Below are positions 5,124 to 34,849 of a stretch of 64,000 nucleotides of DNA, in pieces. A program made the position numbers and the translations under genes. The stretch spans positions 18,400 through 82,399 of the IMG/VR virus record IMGVR_UViG_3300021479_000013. One strand, 5' to 3'. This stretch comes from a virus. How positions within the stretch are numbered: the stretch's first letter is position 1; every line of letters starts with the position of its first letter. The notes under the pieces are model-generated. The model searched no databases and was not told the origin of the DNA. It worked only from the letters and a program-made list of their open reading frames with translations.

Positions 5124-5425
5124 TGCGGGGTGTCCAAGTGGTTGTGCGGCGCTGTGGTAACGCTGATATCTGAGTTATCGTTGCCGAGGCCGAGGAGGAT
5201 GAGCACACGTGCGTCCGGCGCGCGGACTACCTGCCAGTCGTGCGTTCCGGCGATGTCTCGAAGAATAGACTGCGTTTCCGCCCAAGTCTTACCTGGCTGG
5301 TAGCCGTGGGACAAAAGTGCGGATTGAATCTGCTTGACGCGTTTGGCGTCCGGCTGCGTTTGGGCCGCGTGTAACATGCCCGTGATAATTAACACGGCCA
5401 AGGTAGCTAAAATTGCTCGTCTCAT
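5120..5425 (-). CDS. Secreted protein with a peptidoglycan-binding-like domain
   Basis: Signal peptide MRRAILATLAVLIITGMLHA; R.KQIQ.AL...GY...WQ....PDARVL..LGLG pattern; adjacent to the SLT gene. Confidence 0.6.
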   Translation of the reverse strand: MRRAILATLAVLIITGMLHAAQTQPDAKRVKQIQSALLSHGYQPGKTWAETQSILRDIAGTHDWQVVRAPDARVLILLGLGNDNSDISVTTAPHNHLDTPQ

Positions 5426-5967
5426 TGGTACCTCGCTGCCGTCAGAACTTTAGTCGAGTACGTATTGGTGTGATCTCCGAAACCGTTGTACGCGTGAAGG
5501 CCTTCTTCCACGCCGTACCGCTTGATATAGCCTTTCAAGATTCCGCATCCGACCGCCAGGTTCACAGCCGGGTCTAGAAGCTGTCGTTTGGAGTACCGCT
5601 TGTAAAGCGGGTAGTGTACCTGCATCAGTCCGATATCCTTCGTGCTGGACTCCGCGTCCGGCTTGCAGGACGATTCCACGAAGATGAGTGCGGCGAGAAT
5701 CCTGGGAGAGATTCCCATCTCGACCGCAAACTTCCCCGTCAGAAGAGAGTAGTTGTCGCCGCACCCGTTGTAACGGTAGATGTCGCGCGCGATCACCGCC
5801 GCCCTGGCGTACCGCTTCTCTAACAGCTCTTGCTTAAAGGATTCCTTCGCCTGGTCAACCGTGAGCGGTCTTGCCAGGACAGGTTTAACGTCCGGAGTTC
5901 CGTACTTGTCGTAGAATAAACAACCGAACATGCCTGTTATAAACATCAGAGACAGTAGTTTGTTCAT
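5422..5967 (-). CDS. Lytic transglycosylase (SLT domain) with N-terminal hydrophobic anchor
   Basis: ILAALIFVESS, IGLMQV, LLDPAVNL..G..IL and AYNG motifs. Confidence 0.9.
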   Translation of the reverse strand: MNKLLSLMFITGMFGCLFYDKYGTPDVKPVLARPLTVDQAKESFKQELLEKRYARAAVIARDIYRYNGCGDNYSLLTGKFAVEMGISPRILAALIFVESSCKPDAESSTKDIGLMQVHYPLYKRYSKRQLLDPAVNLAVGCGILKGYIKRYGVEEGLHAYNGFGDHTNTYSTKVLTAARYQ

Positions 5968-18290: not shown

Positions 18291-18568
18291 AGTGCTGCCT
18301 CCGAGTACGCGTAATCTTCGTTATTTCCGAAGTCAATACGGTCCAGGGGGTCATCGTCTGTTCTCTCGTATGACAGAAGACAGATGGAGTGAAATACGGA
18401 AATAGTTCTAATTATGCCCGATTCGGGACCGTCGTCTGTCGGGTCGTAAAACGAGTTAGGGCGTTCGCAGTAGTCGAAGTGTACGCTTGTTCCCGTCTCA
18501 GCGGCATCAAGCTCGAGGTTGATCAGCGTAATGTACCTGTCCAAGTCTTGTCTCTGTCTAGCGTCCAC
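18287..18568 (-). CDS. Acidic hypothetical protein
   Basis: GGAGG RBS; packed ORF. Confidence 0.55.
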   Translation of the reverse strand: MDARQRQDLDRYITLINLELDAAETGTSVHFDYCERPNSFYDPTDDGPESGIIRTISVFHSICLLSYERTDDDPLDRIDFGNNEDYAYSEAAL

Positions 18569-28820: not shown

Positions 28821-29137
28821 GCCGCAAGTCCGTCACGATTCTCGGCGTCAAGATTCCTTTGGCCAATATCATCTCGACACCAAAGTTGACAGAAGCTTGG
28901 ATAGGGTCGCCCTTTCTTCGCCGTCGCAACGACTGGGTGGCGGTCGCCCCATCCACCCCTTCGAAAGAGTACGGGTCATCGTCTGGCACTTATCTAGGCG
29001 GCTATTATGATTATTGCACCTTCTCCACGTTCGCAGTCGATAACAAGTTCGACGACAGGATTTTAACGGCAGCAAAAGAACAAGCCGATGAATACGTTCG
29101 ACGACTCAACAAGTTAGTTCAGGGCGAGTATGTCTAA
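28817..29137 (+). CDS. Hypothetical protein
   Basis: GTGA overlap start. Confidence 0.55.
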   Translation: MSRKSVTILGVKIPLANIISTPKLTEAWIGSPFLRRRNDWVAVAPSTPSKEYGSSSGTYLGGYYDYCTFSTFAVDNKFDDRILTAAKEQADEYVRRLNKLVQGEYV

Positions 29138-29312
29138 GAAAAATATTACGTCGAAAGAGAAAATCGATAACAACACGATTCACGTGACATTCGAGAACCC
29201 AGACGGCACACGCAAGTATGAATTTCGTGGAGCCTCAATGCGCGCCATCCAGCGCGGCAAAGACCCGGCCACTCTAAGTGGTGGTAGATTAGTGGAGCAC
29301 AAAAAGTCATGA
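29130..29312 (+). CDS. Hypothetical protein
   Basis: Packed ORF. Confidence 0.6.
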   Translation: MSKKNITSKEKIDNNTIHVTFENPDGTRKYEFRGASMRAIQRGKDPATLSGGRLVEHKKS

Positions 29313-29665
29313 GCAAAAGCATAGCCCCAGGCGGCAGCGACACGTTCGAGCACGGTGCGGACGGAGACCCGGAAGACTACACCCCCACGTATTACGGCAA
29401 AAAGAAACTGGAGAAGCACAGCCCCTCGTACTCGGTTTATTACAAGCCAGCGACAGAGGCCGCAGCAGGCGGCTCCGGTGAGAACCAGAACGAAGTAGGC
29501 GGACAGAGCTACCCCGGGCGCAAGACCCCTCAGGCCCAAGCGGTTACTACGGCCACAGAACAGTCCGGCTCCACGGTGCGCCAAGGCCAGAAACAGACCG
29601 GCCTGAACCGTTACCCGATAAACGAACACGAAGAGAAAGCGAAACACACAGGTCCGAACAACTAG
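29309..29665 (+). CDS. Hydrophilic, probably disordered protein
   Basis: Shares YPGRxTPxAxxVT with 29884..30171. Confidence 0.65.
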   Translation: MSKSIAPGGSDTFEHGADGDPEDYTPTYYGKKKLEKHSPSYSVYYKPATEAAAGGSGENQNEVGGQSYPGRKTPQAQAVTTATEQSGSTVRQGQKQTGLNRYPINEHEEKAKHTGPNN

Positions 29666-29680
29666 TTCAAAGGAATAACA

Positions 29681-29866
29681 ATGTTCACATTCTCCGCAAT
29701 CACAATCGTAGTCTCCGCTCTGCTAGGCTTTGCAGGCGGGCGAGTTCATCACCCAGCAAATTTGAAGGTCGCGGCCATCAAGGCCGAGATCGCAAAGATC
29801 GAAACAGAAGTTAAGGCATACGTGATCGCCAGCGCGATTGTCGTTCGCCTTAAAAAACTCCTTTAA
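29681..29866 (+). CDS. Small membrane protein
   Basis: N-terminal TM segment; AAGGA RBS. Confidence 0.6.
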   Translation: MFTFSAITIVVSALLGFAGGRVHHPANLKVAAIKAEIAKIETEVKAYVIASAIVVRLKKLL

Positions 29867-29883
29867 TTCACGAGGTAACTTTC

Positions 29884-30171
29884 ATGTCGTCAGCAAACAC
29901 CACAGCAGCATCTAGCGCGCACGCGCCAGAGAAGTGCATGTCCAGCGAACAGCCGCACGCCCACAAGTACCCGGGCCGCGCGACACCGAAGGCCGAGAAG
30001 GTCACCGACGCGTCTCACGACGCAGCGGCGCTTAAGACAGGTCGGTCCTTATCGATGGGCGTCTCGGCAGACGGCTCACACAAGGGCATCCCGACGAGCA
30101 TGGAAGAGGTTGGCCGTCACACGACGCAGCCCGCCACGCCCAAGTTCGCGCACAAGTACCCCGGAGTCTAG
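29884..30171 (+). CDS. Hydrophilic, probably disordered protein with two AHKYPG repeats
   Basis: GAGGT RBS. Confidence 0.65.
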   Translation: MSSANTTAASSAHAPEKCMSSEQPHAHKYPGRATPKAEKVTDASHDAAALKTGRSLSMGVSADGSHKGIPTSMEEVGRHTTQPATPKFAHKYPGV

Positions 30172-30235
30172 GGCTTAAAAGAGTTTAAAGATTTCCCTTG
30201 ACAACAAGGGGAAACTGTGGTAGGATGGTATCACG

Positions 30236-30421
30236 ATGAAGACATACGAAAGAGAGATGTGGATTCCGTCTAAAAACGGCGTCGGTATCCCTCCGAAGTT
30301 TTTATCATGTCCAGAGTGCGGGGGCACTATGCGACCACGCCCAGGCCACAGATATGTTTGCCAAGAATGTGAAACAGAAACAACGTTAGACATGACACCG
30401 CTCGATCACAAAAAGAGGTGA
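30236..30421 (+). CDS. Zinc-ribbon protein with its own promoter
   Basis: CPECGG...CQEC; upstream TTGACA-N17-TAGGAT. Confidence 0.6.
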   Translation: MKTYEREMWIPSKNGVGIPPKFLSCPECGGTMRPRPGHRYVCQECETETTLDMTPLDHKKR

Positions 30422-30798
30422 CTATGACCACGTATCAGCAATCTAACTTGCCTTTTGTCGGTAACGCAGCACAGAGATACCCCATTAAAGACCTCTCGCA
30501 GTTCGTTTGCAGGGGGCTGTACTTCAACGATGACAACATCGAGTTCTTCATGCAAGGCGCTGGCAAGGTTCTGTTTTCACAAAGCACCCCGGCGCTGGTA
30601 GCTCCCGGAACACTGACTGTCACAGGCTTCACCCTGCCACAGCAGTCGACTCCCGGAACGTTCGCGTTCGACTGGTCTGTTAAGGACTCAGACGGCGTAG
30701 TGCTGGCCACCGGTTCGTGTGCAGGCACCTGGATGCAGTTCGCCTTCGGCGGATACTATCATCCTAAGCTGTTGACGAACTCTTTGACCGTCAACTAA
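30418..30798 (+). CDS. Beta-rich hypothetical protein
   Basis: GAGGTG RBS (likely start ATG 30424). Confidence 0.65.
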   Translation: MTMTTYQQSNLPFVGNAAQRYPIKDLSQFVCRGLYFNDDNIEFFMQGAGKVLFSQSTPALVAPGTLTVTGFTLPQQSTPGTFAFDWSVKDSDGVVLATGSCAGTWMQFAFGGYYHPKLLTNSLTVN

Positions 30799-30806
30799 AT
30801 CAATCC

Positions 30807-31021
30807 CGCCTGTCAGGGCAGTCGTCTAGGACGCAGTACTGACCATCTGCCCCGTATGGCCGTGAGGCGACGGGCGCAAATTTACAGGGCGGCAGGAGCA
30901 TCACTGTGCCGTCCTCAATTTTCTAACCGAGCCGACTTGTCTGTCGGATAAGACACTCGGGGCAGAGCACCCACGGGCCTAGTCGCCGCAAGGCGGGTAA
31001 AGGTTGCTCTTCGAAAGGCCC
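30807..31021 (+). ncRNA. Putative structured small RNAs upstream of tRNA-Asn
   Basis: Three-way junction, hairpin and two pseudoknot-capable units separated by AAUUU-type linkers. Confidence 0.5.
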
Positions 31022-31039
31022 AAACTTTCTGCCCATCGC

Positions 31040-31124
31040 TGGGCTGTGGCTCAACTGGTACAGCAGGTGACTGTTAATCACCCAGTGCGAAAGCACATTA
31101 CAGGTTCGAATCCTGTTGGCCCAG
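31040..31124 (+). tRNA. tRNA-Asn(GUU) with an atypical long variable arm
   Basis: Acceptor TGGGCTG/TGGCCCA with G73; anticodon arm GGTGA-CTGTTAA-TCACC; V-arm GTGC-GAAA-GCAC; T-arm ACAGG-TTCGAAT-CCTGT; followed by CAA, not CCA. Confidence 0.85.
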
Positions 31125-31126
31125 CA

Positions 31127-31521
31127 ATGAGCAGAACAATTTTAGAGACTGGTGCTGCCGGACTAGAAGGACGTTATCCGGGCGAGTCTCTGAAGGCGTT
31201 GTACAACAGAGAGAACAAAAAATCCCAGGGTAGCTCCCGTGGGCCTGTATCCTCGCTAGGATAAGTTCTCTCGCTCATCAAAAATGAGCCAAGCGCGTAG
31301 GGACCGCGCGCTGATTAAATAGTCCCTCAATTTTGTAGTTTGGGAAGTAGGCGTCAGGTATAAAGGCATAACCCGAGCGCCCTCGACAACCCAAACGTGT
31401 CTACGATTTCGGGGCCAGTGTGCAGCGTAAGCTGGCAGCGTGAGCCGATTAGCGACTCGTAGCCCCGACCTCTTTACCCTTATAGTACCCGTTAACCAGC
31501 TTAACGACCACTATAAGGGTA
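31127..31521 (+). ncRNA. Putative structured small RNAs downstream of tRNA-Asn
   Basis: Several closed multi-stem units, an H-type pseudoknot and a 12-bp perfect hairpin. Confidence 0.5.
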
Positions 31522-31540
31522 CATAAGTTCAGGAGCAACG

Positions 31541-31627
31541 ATGTCAATCATATTTGAATTGATCGGAGGCGTGCTGTTTTTTATCTTGCTCGCCTCGTGG
31601 CTCTTCAAGTCGCCTAAGGGCGAATAA
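31541..31627 (+). CDS. 28-aa membrane peptide
   Basis: MSIIFELIGGVLFFILLASWLFKSPKGE with AGGAG RBS. Confidence 0.6.
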   Translation: MSIIFELIGGVLFFILLASWLFKSPKGE

Positions 31628-31810
31628 ATTTTTCACTCCCGGTAAATCTATAAGTCGGAACTGAGAAGCCGAGCCGGGACAATTTTTACCGTTCTCTGGA
31701 TAGTCCCGACTTCACAGTCTGCTGGAATACCAGTCATGAGGGAGAACAATTGAACACCCACGGCGGGTCTAGAAAACCTGTTTAACGTGGTGGAGTTCTT
31801 TAAAATTTCT

Positions 31811-31884
31811 GGGCTGTTAGTTAAGCGGGATAACGGTTGCCTTGCACGCATCAGTCAGGAGTTCGATTCTCCTACGGTCCACCA
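31811..31884 (+). tRNA. tRNA-Ala(UGC)
   Basis: GGGCTGT/ACGGTCC acceptor with G3:U70, anticodon loop CTTGCAC, TTCGATT T-loop, ACCA end. Confidence 0.92.
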
Positions 31885-31901
31885 ATTTGACTCGGTGACA
31901 T

Positions 31902-32144
31902 ATGACGATATCAGACGCAGCCTCAATCGCAGCACTGGTAGTCGATCTAGTCGCCTTGTATTTTCTAATCGGCATTTGGAAGGACGACAGGGCTATGCGG
32001 GTCGCAGCAGAGGAATCCCTGCAAGTACAAAAAGATTATCTAGGAATGCGGCGTAAGTGGTATGAAGGCCGCACAAAGAAAAAGGACGAAAAGAATGTCG
32101 CTCAGCTTAGACCAACGGATGGCGTTGACGCGGACAATCTGTAA
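31902..32144 (+). CDS. Small membrane protein
   Basis: N-terminal TM segment followed by a charged tail. Confidence 0.55.
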   Translation: MTISDAASIAALVVDLVALYFLIGIWKDDRAMRVAAEESLQVQKDYLGMRRKWYEGRTKKKDEKNVAQLRPTDGVDADNL

Positions 32145-32234
32145 TATCGTCGGGGTCATCATCTCAATCGTGTACGTGATATGGGTGATGAGCAAGTAAA
32201 ATTTAAACGACTTTAAACGAGTTTAGGAGAACAA

Positions 32235-32582
32235 ATGTTTACACCTCCAGCAGGCACATGGACCACGGGACAGACGGCTATCCTGGCAGCACTAGTTCTC
32301 ACCACGCTCGTAGCAGTGTTAGGCGACGCGTATACCACGATGGCAGGATTGGCTAAAGGCCTCGCGGAAGGTAACCCGGTCATGAAGTTTTTCTTCTCTA
32401 AGATCGGTCAGTCGCTGACGGCATTCCTCTCAGCGGTCGCGGTACTGGCATTCGGAACTGTCGTCGCGGCGCACAGCCTCGGCGCGGCTTACGTGTTCTT
32501 CGGCGGCGTCACAATCGCAGAAGGCATCGTAACCCTTCGCAACTATTTGAAGCTGAAGGCAGCAAAGATTTCTTTGAAATAA
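32235..32582 (+). CDS. Multi-TM membrane protein (DUF5658-like)
   Basis: D..TT..GL..G..E.NP motif; three TM segments. Confidence 0.65.
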   Translation: MFTPPAGTWTTGQTAILAALVLTTLVAVLGDAYTTMAGLAKGLAEGNPVMKFFFSKIGQSLTAFLSAVAVLAFGTVVAAHSLGAAYVFFGGVTIAEGIVTLRNYLKLKAAKISLK

Positions 32583-32591
32583 ATTTTCTAA

Positions 32592-32666
32592 GCCTTGATG
32601 ATCTAGCGGTCATGATGTCGCACTTGTAATGCGAACGCCGAGGTTCGACTCCTCGTCGAGGCCCCA
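32592..32666 (+). tRNA. tRNA-Thr(UGU)
   Basis: GCCTTGA/TCGAGGC acceptor, TCGCA-CTTGTAA-TGCGA anticodon arm, TTCGACT T-loop, CCA end. Confidence 0.92.
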
Positions 32667-32700
32667 AATATTATACGCACCTTAGATTCACGGAGATTTC

Positions 32701-33096
32701 ATGTCAGCACCAACACCTACAGCAATGTATTCGACGAACAGTTCGCAGTCCGGTCTAACCGTCGCGGCTGCGTTCCCCCAGAACACGACACAAGGCGTCG
32801 GCGGGCAGAACCTCGACCTCATCCAGATCGTCGGCCTCGGCGGCAGCATCCTCTTGAACGTAGACTTCAACGGCACCGTGCACAACCCGGCTGTCGCAGC
32901 TACCACTTCTGCAGGCGGAATCGGCCAGACGCGCGTCGGGCAGTTCCAGACCAATCTTTCCAGCACCGCGACGACAGCTCAGCTGTTCGCGAGCGCCTTT
33001 GCTAACCCGTCATTGCTTGACGTACTCCAGATCGTCAATGAAGGTGGTAATATACATTACAACCTGAATTACCTCGGAGTCGCGTCCGGGTCCTAA
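32701..33096 (+). CDS. Putative virion protein with an internal duplication
   Basis: Two copies of T.A..F......LD..QIV..GG.I..N....G. Confidence 0.65.
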   Translation: MSAPTPTAMYSTNSSQSGLTVAAAFPQNTTQGVGGQNLDLIQIVGLGGSILLNVDFNGTVHNPAVAATTSAGGIGQTRVGQFQTNLSSTATTAQLFASAFANPSLLDVLQIVNEGGNIHYNLNYLGVASGS

Positions 33097-33220
33097 TTTT
33101 TATCGGAGGCTTCATGTGGCAGCGTCTATGTTTTGGATGCCGCCGACTTCTTGAAAAGAAGAAGCCAGACGACATCGTAGTTTGCACCTGTGGTTGGATT
33201 TGGCATCTAGGAGATAGTAT

Positions 33221-33517
33221 ATGGCAGGTTCTACCATAAATGGGAATGTTGGGGGAGCAGCAGCATCAGGTGCGCAAGTACAGTGCCTGAACATCCTGAC
33301 CAACGTAACCGTATTCGGCGCTGGCGACGGCTCCGGTAACTACACGATTCCCAGTCTCGCTGCGGGCACTTACGTCATCCGCGCGTTCCTCAATGCCAAC
33401 GTTTACTACCACCCGGTCCAAGTGATCGTCGACGGCGCGGCAACATTCGCGGCTATCAACTTGAATCCTGTAGCGTTGACCGCATCGAACGTTCCCGCGT
33501 GGACTAGCAACTTCTAA
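33221..33517 (+). CDS. Carboxypeptidase-regulatory-like / Ig-like beta-sandwich protein
   Basis: TING.V...GAQV...DGSGNYTIPSLAAGTYVIRA. Confidence 0.7.
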   Translation: MAGSTINGNVGGAAASGAQVQCLNILTNVTVFGAGDGSGNYTIPSLAAGTYVIRAFLNANVYYHPVQVIVDGAATFAAINLNPVALTASNVPAWTSNF

Positions 33518-33606
33518 ATTTAACAACATCCCGAGGCTTAGCGGCCTCGGTCTAGACTGGGGAAGAGCCGATACTCTTCCCTGGTCGATCTTTATCGGAG
33601 GATAAG

Positions 33607-34215
33607 ATGGCAAACGGAAAGTGCAAGTGCGGTGTCGACTATACGTTAGAGAATTCGACTTCAACTGTTTTCAAAAGACAGCAAGGATTCTGTCGCTCGT
33701 GTGACGAGACCTATCAGAAGCAGTATTATTTAGACAGGTCTGAAAGAATTAAAGAAAGGTCTTGCAAATGGGCACGAAAGAATAAAAAGAAGCGACTAGT
33801 GATTGCCATGAAATACTGGGACACTCAGTCAGTTGAGACGCGGGCATCACACAACAAAAAGGTCGTTGCTCAGTATCGCTTAAAGAAATTTGGTATCTCT
33901 CAAGAAGAGTTTGATGCCAAGTTTGAAAGTCAGAAAGGTCTTTGTAGCATATGTGAACAACCTATGCTAGCTGGCGTTCGTAAAAAGATTCCGTGCCAAG
34001 ACCACAATCATGACACTGGTGAACTTCGAGATTTGTTATGCAGCAGTTGTAACCTATTGATAGGTAATTGCTGTGAAGATGAAAAAATTTTGGTAGGTGC
34101 TATTAAGTACTTACGAAAGCACAAAAGCGGTAGTTCGATCAAAACTGCTCTGTGCGGATTGACAGAACTTAATTCTGTACTCTCCGAAAGCGTTTTGTCA
34201 GCGGCTTCCCGTTGA
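33607..34215 (+). CDS. Endonuclease VII family homing endonuclease
   Basis: FGIS..EF.....QKGLCSIC...DHNHDTGELRDLLCSSCN..IG; AT-rich. Confidence 0.88.
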   Translation: MANGKCKCGVDYTLENSTSTVFKRQQGFCRSCDETYQKQYYLDRSERIKERSCKWARKNKKKRLVIAMKYWDTQSVETRASHNKKVVAQYRLKKFGISQEEFDAKFESQKGLCSICEQPMLAGVRKKIPCQDHNHDTGELRDLLCSSCNLLIGNCCEDEKILVGAIKYLRKHKSGSSIKTALCGLTELNSVLSESVLSAASR

Positions 34216-34243
34216 TAAGGCGTATATTAAGAGGTATAATTCC

Positions 34244-34849
34244 TTGAGCAATGTCTTAGACTTTCAAGTTTCAGGCGCGTTTCCGTCTAAAGTTGGCGGA
34301 ACGGGCACCCTTGTCAAGTACTTTCCCCGTCCTATCGGCCCGTCAATCGGCGTAGCACCATCCACGCCGTCTTCGACGAGCGCAGTGGGCGCACTATTCC
34401 TCCCCGCTCAGAACACTCTGAACGGCCAACAGATTTCTGTTCTCGCAACCGGCTCTTTCGGTTCAGACACAGGCGACCCGTCAGGAACAGTAACCGTGAA
34501 ATTGTACGCGGTAACTGGTACCTTGGTTGCTCCGATTTACACCGCACTGGCTTCCACGACCGCATTCGCGCCGACGTTCAACGCTGCTGAGTCTTGGGCT
34601 CTCGCGGGTAACTTCTACGGAGACACCAACTCTGGTGTGTTCGGCGGCGAGTATTCCGCTTATATCCAGGGCGCACTGAACAACACCACCCCGAAGACCT
34701 CGGATAACATCATCTCCGGTTTGAACTTCAACACCGGCAACCCGGCTTTGTCACAGGGCGCAGTTCTGGGCCTCGTGGTCGGCGTGACGTTCGGAACGAG
34801 CGATTCGAGCAACACCGCATCCATGTTCCAATTCACAATCGAAAGCTAG
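34244..34849 (+). CDS. Putative structural beta-sandwich protein
   Basis: Ser/Thr/Gly-rich; TTG start with GAGGT RBS; followed by a terminator. Confidence 0.65.
   Translation: MSNVLDFQVSGAFPSKVGGTGTLVKYFPRPIGPSIGVAPSTPSSTSAVGALFLPAQNTLNGQQISVLATGSFGSDTGDPSGTVTVKLYAVTGTLVAPIYTALASTTAFAPTFNAAESWALAGNFYGDTNSGVFGGEYSAYIQGALNNTTPKTSDNIISGLNFNTGNPALSQGAVLGLVVGVTFGTSDSSNTASMFQFTIES

Follow-up and report, generated by a model that had tools for sequence, protein, structure and literature searches.

Predicted, conserved RNA structures matching no Rfam family in the front part of a reduced soil phage tRNA operon

The window, a 64,000-nucleotide (nt) stretch at positions 18,400 to 82,399 of IMG/VR record IMGVR_UViG_3300021479_000013, comes from an uncultured soil phage whose 82.4-kb record has an estimated completeness of 81%. 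Replication genes (primase, helicase) occupy the minus-strand left arm, and small genes, endonuclease VII, the large terminase and the portal occupy the plus-strand right arm. The stretch studied here, 30800-31810 in window coordinates, is the front part of a reduced, collapsed phage tRNA operon, and it holds three predicted RNA structures (elements A and B, and hairpin H) that are conserved and covary among related phages. A preliminary description made from the sequence alone had seen in it a tRNA-operon-like layout of roughly ten independent, non-tRNA structured units interleaved with tRNAs, with almost no coding capacity. The operon-like layout with structured units inside it holds for at least A, B and H, and so does the interleaving, tRNA-Asn being the sole tRNA within 30800-31810 and tRNA-Ala beginning at its edge; ARAGORN and Rfam concordantly find three tRNA genes in the window. 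The coding capacity is indeed near zero overall, but one conserved open reading frame (ORF) of 28 codons had been overlooked, and the count of ten does not stand, since some units belong together in a single RNA and five others are unverified (Table 1).

Table 1. Features of the reduced tRNA operon (window coordinates, unless a related record is named; z, folding score against shuffled sequences)
Feature	Position	Strand	Description
sigma-70-like promoter	30198-30226	+	TTGACA, 17 nt, TAGGAT, TG before -10; 10/12 matches; heads the operon
Module U1	30807-30876	+	5' two-level hairpin and small GNRA-loop hairpin; z -1.77
Hairpin U2	30886-30915	+	9-bp stem; z -2.94
Element A	30925-31029	+	about 100 nt; two predicted pseudoknotted domains, ends in linker
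Element A, domain 1	30927-31/30956-60; 30932-36/30943-47; 30938-42/30951-55	+	outer stem; inner hairpin; loop-to-junction pseudoknot
Element A, domain 2	30964-71/31002-10; 30975-79/31017-21; 30984-87/30992-95	+	crossed pseudoknot: Pb; Pc; Pd with GNRA loop
tRNA-Asn(GUU)	31040-31125	+	ARAGORN and Rfam; 17-nt variable arm
Hairpin H	31144-31191	+	outer stem 31144-49/31186-91; inner stem 31158-62/31177-81; 14-nt loop
Element B	31195-31335	+	about 140 nt; four predicted helices and 3' H-type pseudoknot, then linker
Element B, 5' parts	31198-31207; 31209-16/31265-72; 31224-30/31236-43	+	5' palindrome; P2; P3 (15-sequence alignment)
Element B, middle parts	31249-53/31258-62; 31273-78/31284-89	+	P4; P5 (15-sequence alignment)
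Element B, 3' H-type pseudoknot	31293-97/31305-09; 31300-04/31322-26	+	S1; S2 (15-sequence alignment)
Stem-closed unit	31338-31404	+	z -2.41; window only
Stem-closed unit	31409-31468	+	z -0.92; window only
Long hairpin	31475-31521	+	12 bp, 3x3 internal loop, 6 bp; z -6.34, 0/200 shuffles as good; window only
28-codon ORF	31541-31627	+	predicted small membrane protein, hydrophobic; only credible ORF in 30800-31810
Module E	31637-31679	+	43-nt two-level hairpin; z -2.13
Stem-closed unit	31691-31747	+	z -0.64; window only
Stem-closed unit	31752-31798	+	z -1.73; window only
tRNA-Ala(UGC)	31811-31884	+	ARAGORN and Rfam; closes the stretch
tRNA-Thr(UGU)	32592-32666		ARAGORN and Rfam
RNase P RNA-like gene	G001:C1:7128-7454; G012:C1:24428-24717 (L098:1501-1790); G016:C1:20703-21025		Rfam-model match

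A large-terminase search of IMG/VR yielded 49 loci, and model searches were run against a comparison set of 31 related records (30 besides that of the window), six of which are at least 90% complete. Phages whose terminases are 70-78% identical hold 26-31 ARAGORN-called tRNAs directly upstream of the same structural genes, in the conserved order His, Pro, Pro, Asp, Asn, Leu(UAG), Arg, Arg, Leu, Leu, Cys, Lys, Lys, Val, Ile, Glu, Glu, Ala, Ile, Met, Gly, Thr, Thr, Gly, Thr, Tyr, Trp, Ser, Ser, Phe, Gln, Gln. These counts are lower bounds, because ARAGORN overlooks two apparent tRNAs in G001 (whose locus is L008) that can be recognized by eye, Glu(CUC) at L008:1208-1283 and Ser(UGA) at L008:4152-4240. 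Since the present phage has three tRNAs where its relatives hold this ordered array, its operon is a reduced one. Asn, Ala and Thr(UGU) are likewise the only tRNAs kept in L003, a 75-kb contig in which the genes neighbouring the stretch have about 78% nucleotide identity to the window, and in L096, a metagenome contig covering only part of the region, as far as that contig reaches. Conserved non-tRNA RNA structures occupy tRNA slots, flanked by tRNA genes; as many as 15 related phages have A or B in such a slot. Among the three closest relatives, whose genomes are without most tRNAs and without the RNase P RNA-like gene, A and B are 94-99% identical, and the conservation of A, B and hairpin U2 exceeds both that of the coding flanks (about 78%) and that of tRNA-Asn.

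BLAST gave the first homologues of element B, which lie upstream of tRNA-Leu(UAG) in G001 and G002, and a covariance model built from seven sequences (R1) identified exactly one copy in 15 of the 31 related records (E 1e-15 to 1e-30), including five of the six that are at least 90% complete. In the alignment of 15 sequences, 14 of them distinct, 87.8% of cells are paired, compared with 71.8% in shuffles (none of 500 reached the observed level) and 27-60% in slid controls, and both sides have changed in 20 of 30 pairs. Helix S1 of the pseudoknot hardly varies and is 96% paired though it lies outside the model. P4 contains U-G pairs in 12 of 14 sequences, which argues for the plus strand as the RNA strand. 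This structure redraws two of the units first proposed: 31127-31278 is composed of a tRNA trailer, hairpin H and the 5' part of B, and 31292-31327 is the 3' pseudoknot of B. A long-range pairing of ATGAGC (31127) with GCTCAT (31273) was rejected, because the 5' strand is changed at two of six positions in L003 and GCTCAT instead pairs locally in P5, covarying in 15 sequences. The next downstream tRNA is Leu(UAG) in 13 of the 15 records, at a gap of 0-357 nt, B ending 0-7 nt before it in G001, G002, G003, G004, G007 and G010 and 55-357 nt before it in seven other records. This tRNA is gone and B is retained nearly unchanged in the window, L003 and L096, the L003 copy being about 99% identical over the first 100 nt and the L096 copy identical as far as the contig reaches.

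Beyond the related records, exact 21-base scans of IMG/VR for A and B returned only the L003 contig, and a two-motif pattern for B returned only five already known relatives. A looser pseudoknot pattern was unspecific, matching at least 120 bacterial loci and 81 viral loci; R1 recovered B in none of the 120 bacterial loci among the matches listed and, in 78 viral loci, only in two known relatives, and by this route B was not seen outside the phage group. A distant blastn search of 30700-32700 against 50,697 phage records gave no match, and the upstream ORF (30418-30798) as a query against IMG/VR retrieved no relative. In two relatives (L078:1665-1765, L076:1382-1481, minus strand), weak matches to YrlA (RF02553; 32.7 and 23.9 bits, cut-off 69) lie in the interval from B to tRNA-Leu(UAG), directly downstream of B and not on it.

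Element A unites in one predicted RNA what had been listed as two units, 30927-30960 and 30964-31021, and an outer stem GGGCAG/CTGCCC drawn for this region is absent in G016 and G002. BLAST located a copy in G016, between tRNA-Pro and tRNA-Asp, and model R2 a further one in G002, directly upstream of tRNA-Asn, giving four of the 31 records in total. Across the four aligned sequences 96.8% of cells are paired (slid controls 29-44%), with both sides changed in 14 of 32 pairs. A gap of 3-10 nt separates element A from the tRNA-Asn that follows it in the window, L003, L096 and G002; in G016 the tRNA directly after it is tRNA-Asp. Its second domain, with the strand order Pb, Pc, hairpin Pd, Pb', Pc', forms a predicted nested double pseudoknot that is kept with compensatory changes in the four sequences; Pc and the loop pseudoknot of A, like S1 of B, are helices outside the models. 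Neither A nor B has a stem closing the 5' end on the 3' end. Ribozymes similar to that of hepatitis delta virus (HDV) have been reported beside phage tRNAs, and the nested topology of A beside a tRNA gene resembles theirs. As an HDV-like ribozyme A was nevertheless rejected: it matches no Rfam ribozyme family at E<=10 and has no P4, the only junction C before helix 2' is U in L003, Pd is capped by a GNRA loop of 4 nt (7 nt in G002), and Pb' comes after six unpaired bases, a combination of loop and unpaired bases that we take to be unlike HDV-type cores.

Hairpin H was matched by model R3 in six of the 31 records, representing four distinct sequences, and both sides are changed in six of 11 pairs (MAFFT alignment). 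The outer stem has a wholly different sequence yet is paired in each copy, the inner stem has one compensatory change, and the 14-nt loop is identical in three of the four distinct copies and partly changed in G012/G013. This loop carries a GGA motif, one copy per genome, which is presumably of the kind bound by CsrA-type proteins. The exact loop core also occurs in two large unrelated viral contigs without the flanking stems and was taken there as chance. H is absent from L003 and L096, and it lies within the tRNA array in the window and in G001; since copies sit both in arrays and between structural genes, H is a portable element that is not array-specific.

The smaller units fall into those that recur and those found in the window only. 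U1, proposed as one stem-closed unit, has homologues in L096 and G016 with the 5' hairpin conserved and with a GNRA hairpin whose loop and stem change compatibly (GCC-GUGA-GGC, ACC-GCAA-GGU, CCC-GCGA-GGG), but its closing stem loses two of eight pairs in L096. U2 is 97% identical in L003 and has one loop change in L096, without informative covariation. Module E has a copy in a different slot of L096, between U1 and U2, with three differences that are all at unpaired positions of the predicted fold. Unit content thus varies even between the closest relatives. In folding tests, the core 30880-31330 (451 nt) folds better than 100 of 100 shuffles (z -3.55); the 11 units folded singly have z from -0.64 to -6.34, and only three of them are matched by two or fewer of 200 shuffles.

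Against Rfam 15 (4227 models), a scan of the window at gathering scores (29 bits for the tRNA model RF00005) returned the three tRNAs only, and a scan of 30000-33000 at E<=10 gave no credible extra match, including GOLLD, ROOL, YrlA and the ribozyme families; no match on B appeared in five relatives either (E<=5 scan). The preliminary description had named decayed tRNAs among the outcomes that would undo its proposal. None of the units is recognizable as a tRNA: across the full 82-kb record RF00005 at E<=10 matches nothing beyond the three tRNAs, ARAGORN at 80% and 60% thresholds makes no extra plus-strand call inside the units, and no T-loop-like motif was seen outside the true tRNAs when the sequence was read by eye. 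The mitochondrial mode of ARAGORN was uninformative, its 22 calls being spread over coding sequence too.

AAUUU-type linkers separate the units, as had been noted. AATTT occurs 10 times in 30800-32700 and 81 times in the other 62 kb (4.0-fold enriched), all ten copies standing at unit or ORF boundaries, and five of the 19 copies of CAATTT fall in the same interval (11.7-fold enriched). The same A/U-rich linker follows each unit, tRNA and small ORF; the tRNAs of the relatives all have a terminal CCA with an ATTTT-type linker behind it, and the non-tRNA units of the window end in CAATTTT. The arrays of G004 and G016 are preceded by the same promoter type as the one heading the present operon. 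No strong terminator, sought as a G+C-rich stem followed by a T run, was found before 33555; the stretch has one weak 5-bp candidate (31610-31623), and 29000-34500 has 9 terminator-like sites versus 6.1 in shuffles. The promoter, together with the lack of a strong terminator, fits one long transcript.

Parts of the stretch are present in six soil metatranscriptome runs, and the contigs of four of these runs were aligned with it. Contigs of run X5 cover 30210-30961, 31007-31192 and 31207-31496 with 0-1 differences to the window, and contigs of run X8 carry A, H and B in versions that resemble L003 or G001. The breaks between the X5 contigs (30961-31007, 31192-31207 and 31496) are not read as RNA ends, and 31544-32215, which these contigs leave uncovered, is not evidence of absence. 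What the contigs establish is that the sequence occurs in RNA libraries; they demonstrate neither transcription nor RNA ends.

Two self-complementary motifs distinguish element B. A perfect 8-12-nt palindrome lies at positions 4-18 in all 14 distinct sequences, with four core forms (GTTGTACAAC, GTTGCAAC, GTTCTAGAAC and TGTCGCGACA), and its centre is always itself palindromic, which an ordinary small hairpin would not need. The P4 loop has a 6-nt palindrome in 11 of the 14 (GTCGAC in four, GTGCAC in three, GCTAGC in two and GCATGC in two), and a twelfth sequence, that of G003, has an 8-nt palindrome near the P4 loop site. The two palindromes differ from each other and vary independently across phages. 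Kretsch et al. (PMC12286853) argue from palindrome switching in loops that OLE and GOLLD form symmetric intermolecular kissing loops. Because the palindromes of B switch yet stay self-complementary, the same signature, we infer that B could pair with copies of itself.

Clusters of tRNA genes in phages are commonly viewed as codon supply or as anti-defence devices. Given that at least two pseudoknotted RNAs persist in a soil phage clade, even in genomes stripped of most tRNAs, it is reasonable to suggest a function of their own for the RNA passengers of the array. We consider, at a probability of about 0.58, that this is a shrunken tRNA operon whose conserved pseudoknotted passengers survive as trans-acting small stable RNAs, B pairing with itself. 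The operon would be transcribed from the promoter at 30198 as a single precursor, which host tRNA-maturation and AU-site endonucleases would cut at the linkers; the pseudoknotted modules, their 3' ends locked in pseudoknot helices, would persist as small stable RNAs acting in trans, as RNA C and RNA D of phage T4 are presumed to do, and B would then self-pair via its 5' self-complementary stretch and, in most relatives, via its self-complementary hairpin loop. A tRNA-independent role seems likelier than a purely local processing role, because the RNAs outlived the neighbouring tRNAs.

Several points weigh against this interpretation. Element A rests on four sequences and H on four distinct ones, and the alignments (A3 and A6) were fitted to the nested helices of the models, so that the pair counts for those helices are inflated. 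In the B copies of the window and L003, P4 is short and the loop palindrome is missing, and the kissing-loop part of the self-pairing idea is thus inapplicable to the window; the 5' palindrome could alternatively be a weak 3-4-bp hairpin or a DNA-level site. H follows the stop codon of a structural-region gene in four records (G008/G022 and G012/G013). The units at 31338-31404, 31409-31468, 31475-31521, 31691-31747 and 31752-31798 have no homologue in the 30 related records, L003 having unrelated sequence in place of 31338-31468, no 31475-31521 hairpin and nothing of 31632-31803, and the remaining eight of the 11 units folded singly are matched by 4 to 48 of 200 shuffles. The RNA-library evidence consists of assembled contigs at a depth of 2-13, with DNA carry-over uncontrolled and without RNA ends.

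Alternatively, the structures might be cis-acting parts of the precursor that position cuts by RNase P or endonucleases, shield neighbours from exonucleases or set product stoichiometry, and that are discarded after processing. The close spacing of A to tRNA-Asn or tRNA-Asp and of B to tRNA-Leu(UAG) in six relatives is what such a role would predict, as are the identical linkers behind RNAs and ORFs and the position of H right after a stop codon. We nevertheless hold it to be unlikely: B stays nearly unchanged in three phages despite the loss of tRNA-Leu(UAG), it lies far from that tRNA in seven other records, and its sequence-conserved loops and self-complementary motifs exceed the needs of a spacer fold.

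More improbable is that the stretch represents decaying remains of a larger tRNA array, with eroded tRNA genes, junk spacer and functionless hairpins. The loss of most of the 26-31 tRNAs, the variable unit content and the five window-only units, some of which fold no better than many shuffles, are in keeping with decay, and for those five units this explanation may still hold. For A, B and H it conflicts with their occurrence as non-tRNA modules with compensatory changes inside the intact arrays of relatives, with A and B being more conserved than the flanking genes, and with the failure of any unit to score as a tRNA or to display a T-loop-like motif.

The palindromes and inverted repeats could also act as DNA, as sites for dimeric proteins, in homing or cassette recombination, or as replication or packaging signals, RNA structure being a by-product. 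The perfect 8-12-bp and 6-bp palindromes of B, the 47-bp near-palindrome at 31475-31521, the different slots that modules occupy in different phages and the small ORFs inside the arrays of relatives (noted by eye, no family search having been made) are compatible with this. It is very improbable, however, given that the non-palindromic helices of A and B covary via G-U intermediates, which make sense on one RNA strand only, that pseudoknot pairings have no meaning in DNA, and that the two palindromes of B differ and vary independently. That A, or B, is a small self-cleaving HDV-like ribozyme trimming the neighbouring tRNA is scarcely credible despite the strand order and location of A, since the core features including a conserved candidate catalytic C are missing and the cut of an HDV-type ribozyme falls at the 5' end of the ribozyme, so that the downstream tRNA would stay attached. 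The roles proposed in the preliminary description, namely nuclease decoys, sponges, anti-defence RNAs and ribozymes, gained no support from this analysis.

Returning to the reading of A and B as surviving trans-acting RNAs, the locus appears to hold new RNA families of a known general kind, the covarying palindromes of B being the most distinctive trait, and A, B or H may be among the 10,006 candidate viral RNAs listed in 2023 (PMC10690425). RNA C and RNA D of T4, described in PMC3014915, are likewise non-tRNA small RNAs inside a phage tRNA cluster whose role is unknown; A and B differ in being rich in predicted pseudoknots, in the covarying self-complementary motifs of B and in belonging to uncultured soil phages whose relatives have an RNase P RNA-like gene, a comparison that does not extend to the T4 sequences and structures themselves. 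GOLLD and ROOL, according to PMC12286853, are phage-encoded, "often near tRNA islands", of unknown function, and form homo-oligomers held by kissing loops. B has the palindrome-to-palindrome covariation of GOLLD, its self-association being suggested by sequence alone, but neither family matches the window or B in five relatives, and many GOLLD RNAs exceed 800 nt (PMC12286853), compared with about 140 nt for B and 100 nt for A. YrlA and other bacterial Y RNAs are described in PMC4201824 as small, with tRNA-like features recognized by tRNA enzymes, and as occurring in phage genomes, whereas the window has no YrlA match at E<=10 and A and B are without a closing stem.

As set out in PMC12286853, natural self-pairing has so far been documented for the long OLE, ROOL and GOLLD RNAs, and B could provide a small, tractable test case. 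Our results also raise the possibility, a tentative and somewhat doubtful one, that B is a phage RNA that self-assembles, in miniature, like the ROOL/GOLLD cages, and that it serves jointly with A in a tRNA-independent task. If so, the 5' stretch and the hairpin loop would be two independent sites joining B monomers of about 140 nt into symmetric dimers or longer assemblies, and the joint task would be important enough to outlast nearly all tRNAs and the phage's own RNase P RNA.

Of the 31 related records, 16, including all six that are at least 90% complete, contain an RNase P RNA-like gene of the bacterial type A, 260-330 nt long, with scores of 66-102 bits, two of them above the 100-bit cut-off. 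Inspection of the alignment revealed recognizable core motifs, with part of the middle region absent. The gene lies inside the tRNA arrays of G001 and G016, right after tRNA-Cys, with tRNA-Lys next in G001, and no such match was obtained at E<=1 in the records of the window and L003. Literature searches at the phrase and title/abstract level found no paper on a phage-encoded RNase P RNA. The gene suggests that some phages may supply their own catalytic RNA for tRNA maturation.

The 17-nt variable arm of tRNA-Asn(GUU) is class II-like, and homologues in G004, G009, G011, G012, G013 and G016 are 83-90% identical; L003 and L096 likewise have tRNA-Asn with a long variable arm, and other relatives have a normal tRNA-Asn of 74-76 nt. 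The variable-arm stem has compensatory changes (GUGC/GCAC to GUCC/GGAC), and the 3' CCA is encoded in G004 and G016, with CAA at that place in the window. The 28-codon ORF has 76-78% nucleotide identity in L003 and L008, where its small hydrophobic product is preserved (DNA translated by eye), and in the window, L003 and G001 an AATTTT linker always comes next. In the window the ORF has a ribosome-binding site, and directly upstream of this site sits the long hairpin at 31475-31521, which, as a guess, could be a site of double-strand-specific (RNase III-type) processing. In place of the window units 31338-31525, L003 holds different sequence, and its positions 5390-5480 contain what resembles the 3' half of a tRNA, with T arm and acceptor strand; it is uncalled by ARAGORN and may be an eroded or interrupted tRNA. 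Furthermore, L003 has between U2 and element A an additional 40-nt hairpin (L003:4918-4957) that is absent from the window, and the loose end of an RNA-library contig of run X8 shows the same insertion.

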